Positions 25,311-62,708 of a stretch of DNA of 64,000 nt are shown here, one piece after another. A program made the position numbers and the translations under genes. The stretch spans positions 13,306-77,305 of the forward strand of contig JAPXTJ010000001.1 in the NCBI GenBank assembly GCA_033812595.1, given 5' to 3'. The notes beneath the pieces are model-generated. The model was not told where the DNA came from. It was given only the letters and a program-made list of their open reading frames with translations, and did not search any database. The stretch is from Thermomicrobiales bacterium. Its GTDB lineage: Bacteria > Chloroflexota > Chloroflexia > Thermomicrobiales > UBA6265. Every line of letters starts with the position of its first letter. The stretch's first letter is position 1.

Positions 25311-26645
25311 ATGGCCACGGTCACCAATCGCACCGACGCCTATCGCTCGTCCGATTCGCAGGCGGCGCACCTCTATGAGCGCGCCCGCCGGGTGATGCCG
25401 GGCGGCAACACCCGCACCACGCTCTACCAGGCGCCCTTTCCACCGTACGCCGTGGAGGGGAAGGGGCAATACATCATCGATGCCGACGGCGAATCGCGCC
25501 TCGACTTCCTGAACAACTACACCTCGCTGATGCACGGCCACGCCGATCCTGACATGATCGCGGCGGTTTCGGCCCAACTCGCCCGCGGCACCGCTTTCGC
25601 CATGCCGACGCGTGAAGAGATCGAGCTGGCGGAACTGCTGGTGAGCCGGATCGCGTCGGTCGATCAGGTCCGCTTCACCAACTCCGGTTCGGAGTCGGTG
25701 ATGATGGCGATCAAGGCGGCCCGCGCGTTCACCGGCCGGCCGAAGGTGATCTCCTTCGAGGGGAGCTACCACGGGTCGTACGACGCGGCGGAGGCATCGC
25801 TGCCGCCCCACTCGAACGCGCTCGAAGCGCCGCCGCAACCGTTCGAGTACTCGGTCGGCACGCCGCGCGGCGTGCTCGATAACACGATCGTGCTGCCATT
25901 CAATGATTCAGCCGCGTTCGAGGCCGCCTTCGCCGCCAATCGGGATTCAATCGCGGCGGTGCTGATCGATCCGATGCCGCTCCGGATCGGCATGATCCGG
26001 GCGAATCAGGATTTCATCGAACTGATCCGGGAACGAACCGCCGCGGCCGGGGTGGTGCTGATCTTCGATGAGGTCGTCAACCTGCGCGTCGCCTATGGTG
26101 GCATTCAATCGCTTTACGGCGTCGAGCCCGATCTCACCACGATGGCGAAGATCATCGGCGGCGGTTTTGCCGGCGGGGCGGTCGGTGGTTCCGAGACGGT
26201 GATGTCGGTCTTCGATCCGACCCTTGGTCATCTCAAGGCGCCCCACGGCGGCACCTTCAACGCCAACCCGGTCACGATGACAGCGGGCAAGGTGGCAATG
26301 GAAAAGCTGACGCCCGAGGAGTTCGCCAGACTCGATCGGCTCGGCGAATCGATCCGCGCCGGCATCGGTGAAACGCTGGCGCGGCACGGCGTGGACGGTC
26401 AGGTGACCGGGGCCGGCTCCCTCTTCTACATCCACCTGCACGACCGGCCGCTGACCGACTATCGCAGCTCGATCACGAACAAGGCGGAACAAGCCTTCGC
26501 CACACGTTTACACCGCGCCATGATGGCCAACGGCGTTTTCATGTCCACCAGCATCTGCGGCTGCCTCAGCACGCCGATGGGGGAGGGCGACATCGACGCC
26601 TTCACGACCGCCCTGGGCCTCGCCATCGAAGAAGCCCGGGCCTAA
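25311..26645 (+). CDS. Class-III (PLP) aminotransferase, glutamate-1-semialdehyde 2,1-aminomutase-like
   Basis: ATG 25311 (MATVTNRTDAY). LYERARRVMPGGNTR, FTNSGSESVMMAIKAARAFTGR, IFDEVVNLRVAYGG and MAKIIGGGFAGGA (Lys region). Confidence 0.85.
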   Translation: MATVTNRTDAYRSSDSQAAHLYERARRVMPGGNTRTTLYQAPFPPYAVEGKGQYIIDADGESRLDFLNNYTSLMHGHADPDMIAAVSAQLARGTAFAMPTREEIELAELLVSRIASVDQVRFTNSGSESVMMAIKAARAFTGRPKVISFEGSYHGSYDAAEASLPPHSNALEAPPQPFEYSVGTPRGVLDNTIVLPFNDSAAFEAAFAANRDSIAAVLIDPMPLRIGMIRANQDFIELIRERTAAAGVVLIFDEVVNLRVAYGGIQSLYGVEPDLTTMAKIIGGGFAGGAVGGSETVMSVFDPTLGHLKAPHGGTFNANPVTMTAGKVAMEKLTPEEFARLDRLGESIRAGIGETLARHGVDGQVTGAGSLFYIHLHDRPLTDYRSSITNKAEQAFATRLHRAMMANGVFMSTSICGCLSTPMGEGDIDAFTTALGLAIEEARA

Positions 26646-26708
26646 GTCAAGTCAAAGTGCCAGAGCGGATTGTTTCGAGAGTTCAACTCTGAATATCCCT
26701 TGAGACTC

Positions 26709-27644
26709 TCACTCGGTTTGGTATTGCCCTTTGGTCTCCGCTGCGAGTTGCAGGGGTTGTTGCAGTACGCGGGGAGCAGGACCCCTGTCCCGTGACAGCG
26801 CCAGATGATCAGGCAAAATGAGCGATTCATGCAGGCCATTCGGATATTCGAAGGCGAGGGAATCTGCATCGAACCGAGCGTTTGACGCATGGATGATTCG
26901 GTGATGATTCGGACAAAGAACAACGATGTTGGAACTCACGTCAGGACCACCGTCACCAAGTCGGTGGATGTGATGGGCCTCAGCATAGTCAAGGTCGAAC
27001 ATGTCGCGAAACTCATGTCCGCACACTTGACAGCGATGTGAGTAGTAGGATTTTAAGCTTTCGCCCAGCATTGGATTTCTCTCATATCGTGTCGTTATGA
27101 CTTGATGGGGCGGCCTTGGATCTAGGAGCTCCAAGCGATCGTGATTGAAGATTGCTCCAAGCGCGCGCTCCTTCCCAAATATTTCCGCGATCATGCGGGT
27201 CGGTGTACGTTGAAGTTGTGGGTTGGGCTTCGACGCTAAAGCCCAGAGAACATGGGGAAGTATCATTTGTTCATCCACCGAGTCAATGTACCGCGGGTTA
27301 TCTTGACCACCATAGTCCCGCGAGAGCCGCAACTGTTCGAGACTGAACGGTATAGTCGGCACCGATGCCGACCCGCGCACGATCCAATCCCATTTTCTGC
27401 CTTCATTTGGCCAATAGTGTTGGCTTAGGGTGCCATCATAATCACGTTCAATCTCGTCGAACACAATCGCGTAGTTGATCCGCGCGTCTAGCAAACCTAA
27501 GCGCATGGCATCACTCTTCACCAGCTGCAATAACAGAAGTTCGCCGGGTTCAAGTGGTGGCGATTGCGGCCTATTGCGCAGCGCAAACAGCGAGCGCTGT
27601 ATGCACATATCAATCTGCGCCTCGCGTACGTTGAGCCGTCGCAT
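26709..27644 (-). CDS. Two-domain HNH endonuclease (unassigned N-terminal domain plus C-terminal HNH)
   Basis: CQVCGHEF...AEAHHIHRLGDGGPDVSSNIVVLCPNHHRIIH is a canonical HNH/McrA-type motif, preceded by RYERNPMLGESLKSYYSHR. It lies in a low-GC segment of about 1.1 kb. Confidence 0.85.
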   Translation of the reverse strand: MRRLNVREAQIDMCIQRSLFALRNRPQSPPLEPGELLLLQLVKSDAMRLGLLDARINYAIVFDEIERDYDGTLSQHYWPNEGRKWDWIVRGSASVPTIPFSLEQLRLSRDYGGQDNPRYIDSVDEQMILPHVLWALASKPNPQLQRTPTRMIAEIFGKERALGAIFNHDRLELLDPRPPHQVITTRYERNPMLGESLKSYYSHRCQVCGHEFRDMFDLDYAEAHHIHRLGDGGPDVSSNIVVLCPNHHRIIHASNARFDADSLAFEYPNGLHESLILPDHLALSRDRGPAPRVLQQPLQLAAETKGQYQTE

Positions 27645-27755
27645 GACTTCGAGACCTACCGCTTTCCGTGAAGCGCCTTCATCCCATCATACATGCTACT
27701 AAAGGCGATCCTGCAAAGCGTAAGTTCGTAGATAGTTGCTACGACAACGTCGAGC

Positions 27756-28271
27756 CTATCGCCTATCGATTGTCACCCCGACTTCCGCCAGCAACCCATC
27801 CCAGTCCAGAGCACGGGTGTACATGCCGAGGGAGCCATCGGCGTTGCGAGGCCAGTCTTCCGGGGCGCGGTCCCAGGCGAGTTCGATGCCGTTACCGTCC
27901 GGATCGGCGAGGTAGATCGCTTCGTGCGTGCCGTGATCCGACGCGCCGCCAATCGGGTACTGCAGTTCCATCAATCGCACGATGGCGCGGGCCAAATCCT
28001 TCCGTTCCGGGTAGTTGAAGGCGGTGTGGTACAGACCGGTCGAACCGCGCGGCGGCGGCGATCCGCCCTTGCTCTCCCAGGTGTTGAGCCCGATGTGATG
28101 GTGATAGCCGCCGGCCGAAAGAAAGGCCGCCTGATCGCCGTACATCGCGACCACCTCGAAGCCGAGGTAGTCGCGATAGAAGGCAACCGCGCGATCGAGA
28201 TCGGCGACCTTCAGATGAACGTGTCCGATCCGGGTGCCGGCCGGGGCAGTGAAATCCTGCGTTGACATCAT
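27756..28271 (-). CDS. VOC-family protein (glyoxalase / extradiol dioxygenase-like)
   Basis: IGHVHLKVADLDRAVAFYRDYLGFEVV ... GGYHHHIGLN ... SDHGTHEAIYLADPDGNGIEL. Confidence 0.8.
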   Translation of the reverse strand: MMSTQDFTAPAGTRIGHVHLKVADLDRAVAFYRDYLGFEVVAMYGDQAAFLSAGGYHHHIGLNTWESKGGSPPPRGSTGLYHTAFNYPERKDLARAIVRLMELQYPIGGASDHGTHEAIYLADPDGNGIELAWDRAPEDWPRNADGSLGMYTRALDWDGLLAEVGVTIDRR

Positions 28272-28366
28272 TTCTCCGCGACCGGCCATGGGAGCATCCC
28301 GTCAAGAAGCGCCGGTCGTTCCATTACCCCAGAGCTTACCAAATGTAAGCGACGTCGGCAACCCGG

Positions 28367-45477: not shown

Positions 45478-46110
45478 GTGGGGGAGCGGCGCCCGGCGGT
45501 TCGGCCCCTTGGAGCAGCGTTGGATCGAGATTCCCGCCACGACAGGAGCGACGATGATGTCGTGCGCCGCGCGCTCCGCAACCGGGCCGATTTCGCGCCG
45601 CTCTACGAGCGACACGCCGCCGCGATCTACGGCTACTGCTACAACCACACCCGCGACCCGGAACTGGCCAACGATCTCGCGGCCCAGATCTTCCTCCGCG
45701 CCATTGAACGGTTGGGGCAGTACCAGCCACGCGCTCACGCCAGTTTCCGCAGCTGGCTCTTCGCGATTGCACGAAATATCGTCATCGATCACTGGCGGCG
45801 ATTCAGACCGACCTGGCCGATTGAACCCTGGCAAATCGCCGCGATTGCGGATGAGCCCGGTCCGGAGGAGATCACGCTCCACCGGGCGCGGATGGCGGAT
45901 CTGCTCGATGCCCTCGATCAGCTGCCTGAACGACAGCGGACGATCGTGGAATTCCGGTTAGCCGGCATGACGACCCCTGAGATCGCGAGCGCGCTCGGCC
46001 TGACCGAATCGGCGGTGAAATCGGCCCAAACCCGGGCATACCGGCACCTGCGCGAACTCCTCGGAGTTCAAAACGAGAGCGACTATGGACGACTTCCCGC
46101 GGCCGATTAA
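45478..46110 (+). CDS. ECF-subfamily RNA polymerase sigma factor
   Basis: FAPLYERHAAAIYGYCYNHTRDPELANDLAAQIFLRAIE ... QRTIVEFRLAGMTTPEIASALGLTESAVKSAQTRA. TTG 45520 (GGAG 5 nt upstream) is an alternative start. Confidence 0.85.
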   Translation: MGERRPAVRPLGAALDRDSRHDRSDDDVVRRALRNRADFAPLYERHAAAIYGYCYNHTRDPELANDLAAQIFLRAIERLGQYQPRAHASFRSWLFAIARNIVIDHWRRFRPTWPIEPWQIAAIADEPGPEEITLHRARMADLLDALDQLPERQRTIVEFRLAGMTTPEIASALGLTESAVKSAQTRAYRHLRELLGVQNESDYGRLPAAD

Positions 46111-47212
46111 CCCGAACGATCCGACGCCGGACAGCGATTTCGCCGATCGTTTCGATCGAGCGTTTCATCAAGCGGCGGCTGAAGATCCGGGCGCCGGCGC
46201 ACTCGATCCCAACCTGTGGGCGCGCATCCAGGCCGAAGCCGGCATCGATCAGACCACCTCGGCGAATGCATCAGCGGGCGCGCCAAAGGCCGGTCCGACC
46301 TCCGTCGACACCGCCGGAACGCTCCACGGTCGAGGTCGTTACACCGCACCAGCAGCGTGGTGGCGGTGGGGGTTGGCCGTAGTGCTGCTGACGGCGCTCG
46401 CCAGCACACTTGTGCTTTCCCTCGACAATGACGAACCGAACCGCAATCCGACCAGTGGGGTAGTGAGCGCCCCGCTGGTGATGTCTCCAATTGCGGAGCT
46501 GTCCGATACCTGTGATGTGGAGCCACTCACCGTCGCCGAAGTTCTGGAGATCGTCACGAGTGTTCCACCGCCAGGTGGTGAACCGTACCCTCACACGGAC
46601 ACTTGGTTGCCGGACACGAATGGCGCCGCTGAGTTTGCATCCGGCACGCGGAGCGTCGTCACGCCAGACATCACTATGTACCGGGCAATTCAACACGCCG
46701 TCGATAGGTATCTCGTCTGTCAGGAGACCGGCACCAACTTCCAGGTTTGGGCGCTTGAATCGGCGCCCGAGGTGCAGCGTCAGGTCACCCAGGTGCTGCT
46801 CTATGAAAATGGCGACGCATTCGGTCCGGAAATCGACGAAGCGATGCTCATCGCCGAAATCGAGCGACTCGGACCCCAACTGCGTCGGGAAACCTGGCAC
46901 GAGGGCATCGGCGGCACCTACCTGACCCTTGTGATCGAGGATGAAGATAAGCAGCTTCGCGCCAATCAGGTCCCCGAGGCCGCTTTCATTACGACAGACG
47001 GCAACGTGGCCGGCGACACCTACGCCTGGATCGGACTCGAGCTTCAGTCGAAGGCGGACGGAGTAGTCATCATTCGCCATGGCGCCGGCACTGAACCGCA
47101 CGAAAGCAACACACCGCGCGAGCAGGATTTGCCGGTTGTCGGCACCCTGATTCTTCGTTTTGACGACTCAGCCAACGCCTGGAAGGTGGAGTGGTTCATT
47201 CCGTCCATCTAA
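46085..47212 (+). CDS. Single-pass membrane protein, putative cognate anti-sigma factor
   Basis: Overlaps the sigma gene by 26 nt. TM WWRWGLAVVLLTALASTLVLS. Extracytoplasmic domain of about 260 aa with no recognised family. Confidence 0.55.
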   Translation: MDDFPRPINPNDPTPDSDFADRFDRAFHQAAAEDPGAGALDPNLWARIQAEAGIDQTTSANASAGAPKAGPTSVDTAGTLHGRGRYTAPAAWWRWGLAVVLLTALASTLVLSLDNDEPNRNPTSGVVSAPLVMSPIAELSDTCDVEPLTVAEVLEIVTSVPPPGGEPYPHTDTWLPDTNGAAEFASGTRSVVTPDITMYRAIQHAVDRYLVCQETGTNFQVWALESAPEVQRQVTQVLLYENGDAFGPEIDEAMLIAEIERLGPQLRRETWHEGIGGTYLTLVIEDEDKQLRANQVPEAAFITTDGNVAGDTYAWIGLELQSKADGVVIIRHGAGTEPHESNTPREQDLPVVGTLILRFDDSANAWKVEWFIPSI

Positions 47213-47394
47213 GCTAGATTCTACTCTTGACCATCGAACATAAATCTGTGCCAACGGGACTGAAGCATAGGTGTGCGCAAACGCACAGCGAACCGATGCT
47301 ACCCGACACATCGACCGGGCGAAAAGCGGCGTAGCTTCAACTTACCCCGGACGTTCCAGGGATGGAAGTCGCAACCCGAGCCAAGGAGCATGGA

Positions 47395-47961
47395 ATGACG
47401 TCGACAGAGAACACCAAGACCTGGGTTTATTCCGCGATGCCAATCACGGCGGCGGTCAACGAGGTGCAGCTGGCCCTCTCCAGACTCAAGAACGATTCTC
47501 AGATACAGAATGCCGGCATCCAATTCTCCAAAGCTGTCCTGACCTTCGTCGTCTCCAACTCGTTCGAGGCGGAGGCCGAAGTCGGCATAAAGGTCGTTAC
47601 CGCGGGTGGCTCGATCGGCCGACAGAGTACAAGCACCATCGTCGCAACACTCGAAGAACCTGGCTTGGAGGCGGTCGAGCTCACAGAACGCGAGTACACA
47701 AACGAATCGATTCAAGAGTTGGTTCGCCAACTCGCAGCCATTGTCCTGCTAGGTGGCGACAAGCCATACCCGCTGGCCTTCAGCGAAGGCAGCGTAGAGC
47801 TTGAACTCATAGTGACTGCGGAGGGCCACCTGAAAGTGGCTACCGAGGGCCTTGTTGTCACGGTGCTTCGGGCGCTCGGACTCTTCAATCTGTCCGTACA
47901 AATGTCCGTGGAATTGCTCAAGACGTCCAGCATTAAACTGCACTACACCCGGGCCACCTAG
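47395..47961 (+). CDS. Tandem trypco2-like domain protein (hypothetical)
   Basis: ATG 47395 with an AAGGAG RBS. The two halves each show a helix followed by 'x(I/L)xFxxxxxxLxFxVxxxxxxxAxxGIKVV..GG..G....T..I..TL' (AGIQFSKAVLTFVVSNSFEAEAEVGIKVVTAGGSIGRQSTSTIVATLE; PLAFSEGSVELELIVTAEGHLKV...SSIKLHY). Low-GC segment. Confidence 0.55.
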   Translation: MTSTENTKTWVYSAMPITAAVNEVQLALSRLKNDSQIQNAGIQFSKAVLTFVVSNSFEAEAEVGIKVVTAGGSIGRQSTSTIVATLEEPGLEAVELTEREYTNESIQELVRQLAAIVLLGGDKPYPLAFSEGSVELELIVTAEGHLKVATEGLVVTVLRALGLFNLSVQMSVELLKTSSIKLHYTRAT

Positions 47962-47978
47962 CACCACTCCGGAGGCCG

Positions 47979-48014
47979 GCCAAGGGCGACAGAGCTCTGG
48001 GAGTCGCCCTTGGC
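47979..48014 (+). terminator. Stem-loop after the trypco2-like gene
   Basis: 12-bp arms gccaagggcgac / gtcgcccttggc with a 12-nt loop. No clear T-tract. Confidence 0.4.
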
Positions 48015-48125
48015 TGGGCCACACTGTAGGCAAAGAACTGACGTAGTTTGGTCTTTGCGGATAAGTGCAGTTGTGCGCAAAGCGTGCAGCGGAGAACAAT
48101 GGCCTCAGTGACCCGAAAAGCCGAT

Positions 48126-48506
48126 TCAGGCCGATTCCATGCGGAATTCCGGACGACCGAACGGCGAGCCGCTCTCGGGCGGACCGTACGCGTTGACGCC
48201 GTAGACGCCGGGTGCGGTGCCAAGCCAGGCCAATAGAACGATCCAACCGAGCGGCACGAGGACGAGTAACAGCCAGAGTCCGCTGCGGCCGAGATCGTGC
48301 ATCCGTTTGACGCTCGCCGCGAACAACACCCAGAGACTGATCGGCGTGACCATGATCGCCATCAGCACGCCTTCCTGCACACCGAGTGTCACCGAGCCGA
48401 CCAGAAACGCCAGCCACGGCAACGCCACCACGTTGGCTACAAGCGCCCACCACGCGCCACGACCGATCCGCCCGGAGGCTGTAACAATATTCCAGATGCT
48501 CATCAC
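48126..48506 (-). CDS. DUF805-domain inner-membrane protein
   Basis: GRIGRGAWW ... SVKRMHDLGRSGLW ... NAYGPPE is the DUF805 signature. Confidence 0.8.
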   Translation of the reverse strand: MMSIWNIVTASGRIGRGAWWALVANVVALPWLAFLVGSVTLGVQEGVLMAIMVTPISLWVLFAASVKRMHDLGRSGLWLLLVLVPLGWIVLLAWLGTAPGVYGVNAYGPPESGSPFGRPEFRMESA

Positions 48507-60453: not shown

Positions 60454-60543
60454 GGCCGCATTCTCTCAGAGAGTTCTTACGAACCGCGCCTCACCACCGC
60501 GGATGAACGATGAGCGCTCACCCTTCCCTGGCACCGTACCCAG

Positions 60544-60653
60544 TCACTCCGAGGCAGCGAGGAGTCCGACGCGAAGCGCCTTTCCGCGTGGACACGCTTC
60601 GGATTCGCAAGGCCGCTGCGCGTCGGATTCTTCGCCTGCGGGCTCTGAATGAC
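60544..60653. repeat. Dispersed palindromic intergenic repeat, copy C
   Basis: gtcactccgaggcagcgaggagtccgacgcgaagcgcc ... ccgctgcgcgtcggattcttcgcctgcgggctctgaatgac. Core at 60567-60578. Confidence 0.6.
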
Positions 60654-60727
60654 GGGTTGCTTTTCGGGGGTGAGTTGGTGGTTCTTTCAGAGCAGCTCCG
60701 TGTCAACGTCAGGCGAGGTGATCGCTG

Positions 60728-61741
60728 ATGGCAGCCGACCAACTCAGTGCCCAAAAGAAACTTCCGACCGGCGGCACCTTCGATATACCGACTGGCGGTA
60801 AATCGTGGTGGCAGAAGTACCGGCTCCCGTTTTTCTACATTCTGCCGGCGTTCATCGTTCTGGCGGTAGTTACGTTCTATCCAATCGGGTACCAACTCTG
60901 GCTGAGCATGACCGATTTCAATATCCGCAGCTTTCGCCGCGGGTACGATTTCGTCGGCCTCGATAATTACATCCGCATCATCAAAGGCGAATTGCCGATC
61001 CCGAACTTCAACTTCTGGCGGGTGCTCGGATTCAATTTCGTCTGGACCGCGGTCAACGTGGTGTTTCATCTCATCATCGGCGTATCGGTCGCCATTCTCC
61101 TCAATCGCAAGCGCATCATCGGCCGGCGGGTTTTTCGCGCCCTGTATGTGATCCCGTGGGCCATGCCGCCGCTCGTCGTCTCGTTGATCTGGAACAAGAT
61201 GTTCAATTCCCAGTTCGGCGCGATCAATCTTTCGCTCAAGGCCCTCGGGCTGCCGCACGATATCCGCTGGCTGGAATCGATCGACGCGCCGATTCCGTTC
61301 CTCCCCTTCCTGCCGCTCGCCTTCTACGCGGTGGCGATCGCCAATATCTGGCTCGGATGGCCGTTCATGATGGTGATCGCCACCGGGGCGCTGCAATCGA
61401 TTCCGTCCGATCTCTACGAAGCGGCTCGCGTTGATGGCGCTCCGCGGTGGGCGCAATTCCGCGATATCACCGTTCCGCTCATCCGGCCCGCCATGGTTCC
61501 GGCGATCATGTACGGCACCATCCTCACCTTCAACCAGTTCAACATCATCTACTTCATCACCGCCGGCGGCCCGCTCGGCAAGACCGAAATCCTCGTCACC
61601 CAAGCGTTCAAACTCGTCAATCCAAATCAGCTCTACGGCGTTGCCGCGGCCTTCAGCGTGATGATCTTCATGATTCTGCTGGTGATCACCATGGCCCAGA
61701 ATCGCGTCGCCCGGGGACTGGAGGGGTGGTCCGATGACTGA
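60728..61741 (+). CDS. Sugar ABC transporter permease (MalF-like)
   Basis: EAA loop DLYEAARVDGAPRWAQFRDITVPLIRP. 337 aa, polytopic. Confidence 0.88.
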   Translation: MAADQLSAQKKLPTGGTFDIPTGGKSWWQKYRLPFFYILPAFIVLAVVTFYPIGYQLWLSMTDFNIRSFRRGYDFVGLDNYIRIIKGELPIPNFNFWRVLGFNFVWTAVNVVFHLIIGVSVAILLNRKRIIGRRVFRALYVIPWAMPPLVVSLIWNKMFNSQFGAINLSLKALGLPHDIRWLESIDAPIPFLPFLPLAFYAVAIANIWLGWPFMMVIATGALQSIPSDLYEAARVDGAPRWAQFRDITVPLIRPAMVPAIMYGTILTFNQFNIIYFITAGGPLGKTEILVTQAFKLVNPNQLYGVAAAFSVMIFMILLVITMAQNRVARGLEGWSDD

Positions 61742-62675
61742 TGCCCAAAACGCAGCGCGACCGGTCCAACCCGACGCGCTCCAAACCTACACGCGCAAGA
61801 AGTCGTACTGGCCGCTGATCGAGGACATCCTCGTTCACCTGCTGTTGGTTGTCATTACCTTCATTGTGCTGTTTCCGATCATCTGGATCGTCTCGCTGTC
61901 GCTCGACCCGCGGAACATCACCACACCCACAACCTTGACGTTGATCCCGGATGGCGCCAGCTTCGACTCCTTCAGGCACGTGCTCACCCAGGAACTTACC
62001 AACGGCATCCGCTTCTGGACCCTGGCCAGAAACAGCCTGATCATTTCGCTTGGCACCAGCGCCCTGGTCACGATATTCGCGGTCTCGGCCGCCTACGCGT
62101 TCGCGCGTTTCCGCTTCCCGGGCCGAAAGTGGGGCCTCTTCGCCTTCATCGCAGTATTGATGCTGCCGCAGGTCGCCACCCTGGCGCCCCTGTTCGTGCT
62201 GCTCAGCCGCGTCGACCTGCCGTGGAGCGACGAATCGATCCGCACCACCCTCTCCGGGATCGGCATCGCCTACATCAGCGGCGCGCTCCCCTTCGCGATC
62301 TGGAATTTGCGGGGATATATCGACACCATCCCGCGCGATCTCGAAGAAGCCGCCATGACCGAGGGAGCCGGGCCGAACCGGGCTTTCATTGACGTCATCC
62401 TCCCCCTGGTCATGCCCGCAATCGCGATCACTATCCTGTTCGGCTTCATGGCCGCCTGGACGGAATACGTGCTGGCGTGGACCTTCCTGACCGATCCGAA
62501 CCGGTTCACGCTGGCGATGGGCCTGTACGCCATGGCGGGTTCGCAATACAACCAGACCCCCTGGTCCCAGTTTGCGGCGATGTCGATCCTGATCACGATT
62601 CCGGTGGTCGTGCTCTTCTTCATCCTGCAGCGCTGGATTGTCTCTGGACTCGCGGTTGGCTCGGTGAAGGGCTGA
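61734..62675 (+). CDS. Sugar ABC transporter permease (MalG-like)
   Basis: DLEEAAMTEGAGPNRAFIDVILPLVMP. Overlaps the upstream permease by 8 nt. Confidence 0.88.
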   Translation: MTDAQNAARPVQPDALQTYTRKKSYWPLIEDILVHLLLVVITFIVLFPIIWIVSLSLDPRNITTPTTLTLIPDGASFDSFRHVLTQELTNGIRFWTLARNSLIISLGTSALVTIFAVSAAYAFARFRFPGRKWGLFAFIAVLMLPQVATLAPLFVLLSRVDLPWSDESIRTTLSGIGIAYISGALPFAIWNLRGYIDTIPRDLEEAAMTEGAGPNRAFIDVILPLVMPAIAITILFGFMAAWTEYVLAWTFLTDPNRFTLAMGLYAMAGSQYNQTPWSQFAAMSILITIPVVVLFFILQRWIVSGLAVGSVKG

Positions 62676-62708
62676 TGGATCGACGAAGCCGGGCTACAAT
62701 CACCGGCG

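Follow-up and report, generated by a model that had tools for sequence, protein, structure and literature searches.

Modification-dependent nucleases are a front-line defence against phages with disguised DNA and serve as reagents for mapping epigenetic marks, and the repertoire of sensors known for them is small, comprising SRA, EVE, YTH, winged helix, SBD and DUF3427. The closest described systems are the modification-dependent restriction endonucleases (MDREs) that join a sensor of the PUA superfamily to a nuclease; according to Lutz et al. 2019 (PMC6765204), these enzymes carry the sensor at the N-terminus and an HNH or PD-(D/E)XK domain at the C-terminus, and a methyltransferase is rarely found near their genes, which was taken as strong support for modification dependence. 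Those of the HNH type include TspA15I and VcaM4I (EVE-HNH), ScoA3IV (SRA-HNH) and ScoA3V (PUA-like-HNH). In all PUA-superfamily readers studied so far the modified base is flipped into a pocket; for ASCH domains, a role in reading DNA modifications has been predicted, although it was still undemonstrated in 2024 (PMC11037411). Here we describe a gene found in a stretch of 64,000 nucleotides from a Thermomicrobiales bacterium (GenBank assembly GCA_033812595.1, contig JAPXTJ010000001.1, positions 13,306 to 77,305 of the forward strand); this whole stretch is called the window, and all positions refer to it. An inserted low-GC islet of ~1.13 kb (26646..27775) contains a single gene (26709..27644, minus strand, stop codon included), predicted to encode a 311-aa two-domain sensor-HNH endonuclease.

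The reading that we favour, with a probability of about 0.6, is that this gene was acquired horizontally and specifies a free-standing restriction endonuclease of type IV, dependent on DNA modification and equipped with a new ASCH-like sensor. As in the MDREs of Lutz et al., an N-terminal PUA barrel and a C-terminal HNH domain are combined in one polypeptide of ~300 aa, and the gene is likewise solitary, without an adjacent DNA methyltransferase; a further parallel is with YenY4I, in that relatives of the sensor are also joined to a DUF3883 PD-(D/E)xK nuclease. Unlike those enzymes, the islet protein has a sensor devoid of sequence similarity to EVE, SRA and YTH domains, being structurally nearest to ASCH. 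The general plan of a type IV enzyme made of a PUA sensor and an HNH nuclease was already known, and the new element is the sensor itself, which has an ASCH-like fold and represents an uncatalogued family that no restriction enzyme characterised so far employs, the sequence of the ScoA3V sensor lying outside this comparison.

A first-pass annotation, made from the letters of the sequence, had singled out the open reading frame (ORF) 26709..27644 on the minus strand; this ORF is indeed present, starts with ATG, encodes 311 aa and holds every motif quoted for it. The identical protein at NCBI (P0001), named "HNH endonuclease [Thermomicrobiales bacterium]", is annotated with only 265 aa. Its start was placed 46 residues late (27507-27644), which drops the N-terminal stretch MRRLNVR.AQIDECI together with strands β1-β3 of the sensor barrel. 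A search of 5.8 billion proteins yielded 215 homologues, and in an alignment of 37 full-length ones this N-terminal stretch is kept; translation therefore begins at the ATG at 27644, and the protein of the NCBI annotation is too short. The AlphaFold2 model of the full-length protein had a predicted local distance difference test score (pLDDT) of 83.6, and when it was compared with known structures by Foldseek two sets of matches were obtained, one per domain, in agreement with the isolated N-domain.

The putative sensor domain covers aa 1 to ~145 (27210..27644, minus strand) and is modelled with confidence, its pLDDT being 90-97 within the full-length model; modelled alone, it had a mean pLDDT of 89.3 and a predicted TM-score (pTM) of 0.84. 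Its elements follow the order β1(2–6)–α1(8–17)–β2–β3–α2–β4–α3–β5, and the model shares the β1-α1-β2 barrel order with ASCH domains. Foldseek comparison of the isolated domain with the PDB placed ZmASCH (5y6b/5guq) at E values of 8e-4 to 2.6e-3 with probability 1.0, TMt of 0.58-0.60 and root mean square deviation (rmsd) of 3.8-4.9, followed by the ASCH domain of TRIP4, including its complexes with double-stranded DNA, MJECL36, PH1033, EOLA1/CXorf40A, YqfB and N-domains of ATP-sulfurylases. The top 34 PDB matches were all ASCH or PUA-like proteins save for a region of DrmA (7s9w_A), and in BFVD the matches were small viral proteins of the ASCH/DUF3850 type. For the ASCH structures as a group (ZmASCH 5guq, TRIP4/ASC-1 8yew/8yfi, EOLA1 5y7d and YqfB 9kyh), probabilities were 0.9-1.0 and TMt 0.46-0.60 over ~145-157 aligned columns. 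The first-pass annotation had proposed that an N-terminal reader which it could not assign is fused to the HNH nuclease, and had listed a fold unrelated to nucleic-acid binding as the outcome that would speak against this; the N-terminal model is a nucleic-acid-binding fold, a PUA-superfamily barrel matched best by ASCH domains, so that outcome was not seen.

At the level of sequence the domain stands apart. Identity with the ASCH structures is 9-14% and the ASCH profile PF04266 is unmatched; no match to the domain was found in Pfam (E<=1), NCBIfam, PADLOC or the PDB, and when 23 diverse family members were scanned singly at E<=10 nothing fell on it, PF04266 included. A profile of the family searched against PDB sequences retrieved no ASCH chain, and VcaM4I (6yex) was matched through its HNH alone, while a profile of the N-domain only, run against the 5.8 billion proteins, led back to members of the family alone, and these were without Pfam domains. 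The SRA of TagI, the EVE of VcaM4I and any YTH structure were absent from the top 50 Foldseek matches of the isolated domain. Thus, among the candidates SRA, EVE, ASCH and YTH that had been put forward for the reader, ASCH proved nearest in fold, while by sequence the domain is a member of none of them; judged from its model, it is most aptly classed as an ASCH-like orphan within the PUA superfamily. Moreover, the ASCH proteins characterised to date are stand-alone or linked to RNA and unfused to nucleases, whereas the islet protein carries the fusion. Residues D68, W78, P99, F100 and Y111 are invariant throughout the family, with A21, L38, L39, R55, S74 and D124 nearly so, and the aromatic-plus-acidic set among them (D68, W78, F100, Y111; R55, S74, D124) looks typical of a base-binding pocket.

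A separate observation concerns the DISARM protein DrmA, in which a region of ~136 residues (7s9w_A) matched the N-domain model with probability 0.99 and rmsd 3.4; this model-based match hints that the defence helicase contains a PUA/ASCH-like module.

The C-terminal half begins with a helical linker and pre-HNH helix (aa ~146-204; 27033..27209, minus strand), for which the AlphaFold2 model shows helices at 149-156, 158-174 and 191-200. It continues with the ββα-metal core of the HNH with its CxxC...CxxH zinc site (aa 205-253; 26886..27032) and ends in an extension (aa 254-311; 26712..26885) formed by strands with the conserved motif YPNGL.E and a tail of low confidence, aa 299-311 having pLDDT < 50. 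The HNH motif read by eye at the C-terminus was recovered by Pfam PF01844 at aa 205-253 with E=6.6e-8, over the gathering cut-off, and the PADLOC type IV model mREase_IV covers the same stretch with E=1.1e-7. The closest PDB sequences found with phmmer were TagI (6ghs, 2.9e-10, aa 175-263), EcoKMcrA (6ghc, 3.1e-7) and ScoMcrA (5zmm, 3.4e-4), all of them biochemically proven modification-dependent enzymes; for the HNH half, Foldseek likewise gave 6ghc (1.4e-4) and 6ghs (3.5e-4). Similarity in sequence extends into the pre-HNH helix (RYERNPMLGESLKSYY), aa 175-204 aligning with TagI and EcoKMcrA, and on these alignments the HNH half, core plus preceding helix, belongs to the McrA/TagI-type subfamily. 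In the 37 homologues C205, C208, H224, H225, N239, C244, N246, H247, H248 and H252 are invariant, and all zinc ligands and predicted catalytic residues of the HNH are intact and invariant in the family; within the C-terminal extension the same holds for the residues F258, P268, N269, G270, E273 and H280.

TagI and EcoKMcrA, which depend on 5-methylcytosine (5mC) or 5-hydroxymethylcytosine (5hmC) and are nearest to the islet protein both in sequence and in structure of the HNH, share with it the pre-HNH helix, the CxxC...CxxH/C zinc site, a length of ~290-310 aa and the C-terminal position of the nuclease. Their readers are different: the N-domain matches neither the SRA of TagI nor the reader of EcoKMcrA in sequence, and both lie outside its top 50 Foldseek matches. 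The N-terminal reader of EcoKMcrA is a distinct domain. With ScoMcrA and the SBD-HNH family (NF045808) the similarity is shared in the HNH, the islet protein being without a sulfur-binding domain. Two other assignments were tried and rejected. As a phosphorothioate-dependent SBD-HNH enzyme, the protein scored 35.6 bits with NF045808 against a cut-off of 180, with only the HNH covered (aa 182-254), and its similarity to IscB/Cas9 was weak and confined to the HNH.

The family defined by the N-domain is small, with 72 clusters at E≤0.001 when residues 1–183 were searched by HMMER against 1.84 billion cluster representatives. Its main architecture is that of the islet protein, the N-domain followed by a McrA-type HNH (PF01844), but the nuclease has been swapped in other members: P0191 carries HNH_2 (PF13391, 4.7e-12), and P0140 and P0143 carry NOV_C/DUF3883 (PF13020, 7.8e-14 and 5.7e-13, respectively), a domain treated as a PD-(D/E)XK catalytic domain by Lutz et al. 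2019 (PMC6765204). The three fused modules are mutually unrelated, and the N-domain always precedes the nuclease, also in the HNH_2 and NOV_C members; being joined to three unrelated nucleases, it therefore fits a portable sensor module. The nuclease partners match the nuclease parts of defence proteins in PADLOC, namely the C-terminus of TmtA, PDC-S36, PD-T4-1 and restriction HNH models. The N-domain also occurs solo (~135 aa) or behind an uncharacterised N-terminal extension. Among individual members, P0141 has a 300-aa region after the N-domain for which no Pfam, PADLOC or PDB match was found, P0174 and P0189 have an extension of ~110 aa ahead of the N-domain and no nuclease, and P0158, possibly a chimeric gene call, joins the N-domain to a LacI-type periplasmic-binding domain.

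The horizontal origin suggested in the first-pass annotation agrees with the composition of the locus and with its empty counterparts in relatives (below). When the 64 kb were scanned, the segment 26646-27755 had a GC content of 0.526 against a mean of 0.636 for windows of the same length (z = -4.9), the absolute minimum among them, and its tetranucleotide deviation ranked first of 629 windows (z = 5.9), so the anomaly was upheld by sliding windows. In windows of 300 nt, GC was 0.51-0.56 across ~26600-27800 and 0.60-0.70 on both sides; the counts made by hand, 45-57% inside the segment and about 72% in the flank, were thus roughly right for the former and too high for the latter, which is nearer 65-67%. 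GC at third codon positions was 0.558 in the ORF 26709-27644 compared with 0.77-0.84 in four neighbouring genes.

Empty sites were sought by taking aminotransferase orthologues (77-85% identity) from the protein database and tracing them to their contigs; scanning of metagenome contigs with the aminotransferase gave no empty site, the best match being 56% identical and on a short contig. Two of the traced loci, L090 (aminotransferase 84% identical) and L093 (78%), keep the gene order of the window, GntR - inositol monophosphatase - aminotransferase - glyoxalase - GFO (- AP_endonuc_2), and lack the HNH gene; in them the aminotransferase and glyoxalase genes adjoin, with a 4-nt overlap in L090 and a 132-nt gap in L093. 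Since these orthologous loci have the same order without the gene, the islet is a true single-gene insertion, spanning ~26646-27775. Its DNA is foreign in composition and was probably acquired by horizontal transfer. The nucleotide alignment with L090 is collinear up to position 26644 and resumes at 27815, with ~1.17 kb replacing 53 nt. The left border lies at the aminotransferase stop codon, as had been drawn before, and the right border, formerly set at 27755, falls among the final codons of the gene for the glyoxalase/VOC protein (27756-28289, minus strand). The glyoxalase protein is native through ...LLAEVG and differs in its last 5-6 codons, which read VTIDRR before the stop instead of the ASLAR of the orthologues; the insertion thus gave the gene a new tail and stop codon, replacing the stretch 27756-27775, and because this tail alone departs from the orthologues the right junction is placed at ~27757-27775. 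No tRNA was found by a search at the islet, and its borders showed no significant direct or inverted repeats. With one presumed defence gene lying between convergent metabolic genes and the empty site kept in relatives, the locus makes a clean textbook case.

A further relative, L092 (aminotransferase 82% identical), carries another small low-GC gene at the identical junction (L092:3413-3847), a DUF805 gene of 144 aa with GC 0.56 versus 0.62; the convergent junction between aminotransferase and glyoxalase may be a recurrent landing site.

Full-length homologues are rare and patchily distributed over several phyla, with ~25 genomes among 185,579 species-representative genomes. The carriers within the Chloroflexota belong to Chloroflexia, Ktedonobacteria, Herpetosiphonaceae, Thermomicrobiales and Dehalococcoidales, and others are found in Acidobacteriota, Desulfobacterota (Syntrophaceae, Smithellaceae), Ratteibacteria and Myxococcales. 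Homologues occur, for instance, in Ktedonobacteria bacterium brp13 (AP024096.1) and Ktedonobacter sp. SOSP1-85. Neither 50,697 phage records nor 72,556 plasmids contained a full-length homologue, only the HNH core being matched there at ~25–45% identity, and a predominance of phage or homing contexts, which had been named as an outcome that would count against a restriction enzyme, did not appear: the homologues lie outside such settings. In 24 of 28 loci the GC content of the gene lies below that of its flanks, the difference exceeding 5 points in 16; the gene is habitually a recent arrival.

No conserved partner emerged when, for 27 loci, all neighbouring ORFs up to 7 kb away on either side were clustered, the maximum being a generic ABC ATPase in 4 of the 27. 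An adjacent DNA methyltransferase was missing from all seven homologue loci annotated with Pfam, in which methyltransferases occurred nearby in only two, 1-5 kb off and of small-molecule type (Methyltransf_11/23/25). Several homologues stand beside ResIII helicases, a DUF559/MTES_1575 nuclease, a RES toxin, MazE/YoeB-Phd modules, DUF3987 or insertion sequence elements; the surroundings of others are purely housekeeping, about half of the loci lying among such genes. In two genomes a small ORF with a MazG-like domain (PF12643) was seen 69-155 nt upstream of the HNH homologue, and in a third 3.5 kb off (L001/L006:9600-9932; L014:3138-3554; L022:6138-6485); in some genomes it may serve as an accessory, acting as a nucleotide pyrophosphohydrolase.

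In the window itself the islet is flanked by genes for an SBP_bac_5 protein (ABC substrate-binding), a GntR/FCD regulator, an inositol monophosphatase, a class-III aminotransferase, a glyoxalase/VOC protein, a GFO/IDH/MocA oxidoreductase, a xylose-isomerase-like TIM barrel and an SDR, all of a metabolic or regulatory kind. None of these flanking genes is a methyltransferase, integrase, transposase or phage gene, in line with what the first-pass annotation had said of methyltransferases, integrases and phage genes. By the criterion of Lutz et al. the absence of a DNA methyltransferase favours modification dependence. Furthermore, a solitary nuclease without an immunity partner must spare its host, and a requirement for a modification absent from the host would be the simplest way of achieving this.

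We propose that the ASCH-like barrel scans DNA for a modified base, which would then be flipped, probably to lodge in a pocket lined by the invariant residues. Capture of the base would position or license the McrA/TagI-type HNH to cut nearby, so that modified foreign DNA, such as that of a phage, would be destroyed while a host genome without the modification would be spared. No methyltransferase or antitoxin would be needed, because the host would lack the target modification. Binding of DNA rather than of RNA or a free nucleotide, and a role in defence, are part of this proposal. Concerning the identity of the mark, it is possible, although we hold it with considerable doubt, that the N-domain is the founder of a clade of ASCH-like readers of DNA modifications with a target other than 5mC/5hmC, for example N6-methyladenine, N4-methylcytosine/N4-acyl-cytosine or a hypermodified base of phages.

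The context of the gene, which is solitary and free of partners, fits a ligand-gated nuclease equally well. In such an enzyme the ASCH-like domain would bind a free modified nucleotide or another small ligand released during infection and allosterically switch on an indiscriminate HNH, giving a signal-activated abortive-infection nuclease. There are precedents: in the PUA-Cal-HAD system reported in 2026 (PMC12871103), a PUA domain senses free m6-dAMP and activates an effector, nucleosides are bound by ASCH proteins of the YqfB type, and structures similar to the HNH half include ligand-activated Cap5 HNH nucleases. However, the HNH domains nearest by sequence, those of TagI, EcoKMcrA and ScoMcrA, come from readers of DNA modifications, an N-terminal sensor with interchangeable HNH or PD-(D/E)xK nucleases is the documented MDRE pattern, and the ASCH of TRIP4, a good structural match of the N-domain, binds duplex DNA; we therefore consider ligand gating unlikely. 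The ties of PUA and ASCH domains in general to RNA metabolism (PMC7641849) lead to a different suggestion, that of an RNA-directed or housekeeping enzyme without a role in defence, acting for example in processing or repair at modified RNA or a damaged base. The best single structural match of the N-domain, ZmASCH, is a ribonuclease of single-stranded RNA, and the housekeeping neighbourhoods of about half of the homologues would suit this suggestion. Against it, close relatives with empty sites do without the gene, which is also rare (~25 full-length loci per 185,579 species genomes), patchy and compositionally foreign, and the McrA-type HNH relatives act on DNA, all of which makes a housekeeping function very unlikely.

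The precision of the insertion, which brought a single gene without integrase, transposase, tRNA or flanking repeats, would also be expected of a selfish, homing-type free-standing HNH gene that spreads by cleavage of empty intergenic sites, into which it is then copied, with the N-domain serving as a sequence-specific DNA-binding module; that a different small gene occupies exactly the same junction in L092, and that its composition is foreign to most of its hosts' genomes in the case of the HNH gene, point the same way. Yet there is no common target site, because the flanking genes differ at nearly every homologue locus, and unlike homing HNH endonucleases the islet gene has no intron, intein or phage location and no conserved insertion target, nor was a full-length homologue met in a phage record. 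The N-domain is moreover a PUA-type barrel, not a known DNA-binding module of homing endonucleases, and the HNH falls in the McrA/TagI group, leaving a homing origin slightly more improbable again than a housekeeping role. Least probable of all is that the gene is a decaying or inactive remnant of a horizontal acquisition. A truncated product of 265 aa at NCBI and a lack of recognisable promoter or terminator, as judged by consensus patterns not calibrated for Chloroflexota, could be read in that sense, but the truncation is an error in the start codon, the frame of 311 codons is uninterrupted, and all family-invariant residues are present in both domains.

If the N-domain is indeed the founder of such a clade of readers, the protein would be the first case of a restriction nuclease shown to be driven by an ASCH-type sensor, and the sensor would be a module portable across HNH, HNH_2 and DUF3883. 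A compact protein of 311 aa with homologues in culturable Ktedonobacteria offers a cheap direct test of the prediction that ASCH domains act as readers, and the N-domain possibly yields a reagent of new specificity.

Two spacers, both referred to the minus strand, complete the islet. The upstream one, of 111 nt, runs from the glyoxalase stop to the HNH start (27645..27755) within the inserted segment, and the 3' one, of 63 nt, from the HNH stop to the stop of the convergent aminotransferase gene (26646..26708). The upstream spacer is presumed either to carry the expression signals of the HNH gene itself or to permit read-through from the glyoxalase gene; a consensus scan of the gene flanks detected neither a sigma-70 promoter nor an intrinsic terminator, a result that is uninformative given that the consensus is not calibrated for Chloroflexota.

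Elsewhere in the window a second, milder low-GC stretch was noticed at 46085-48453, with a minimum of 0.569 in windows of 1110 nt. Its long ORFs, at 46085-47212, 47271-47804 and 47362-47961 on the plus strand and at 47749-48453 on the minus strand, have no Pfam match, and it may be another acquired segment. A third, mild dip to 0.578 at 60500-62700 coincides with two BPD_transp_1 permease genes of an ABC transporter that follow an SBP_bac_1/8 gene, and is an ordinary composition effect of membrane proteins.

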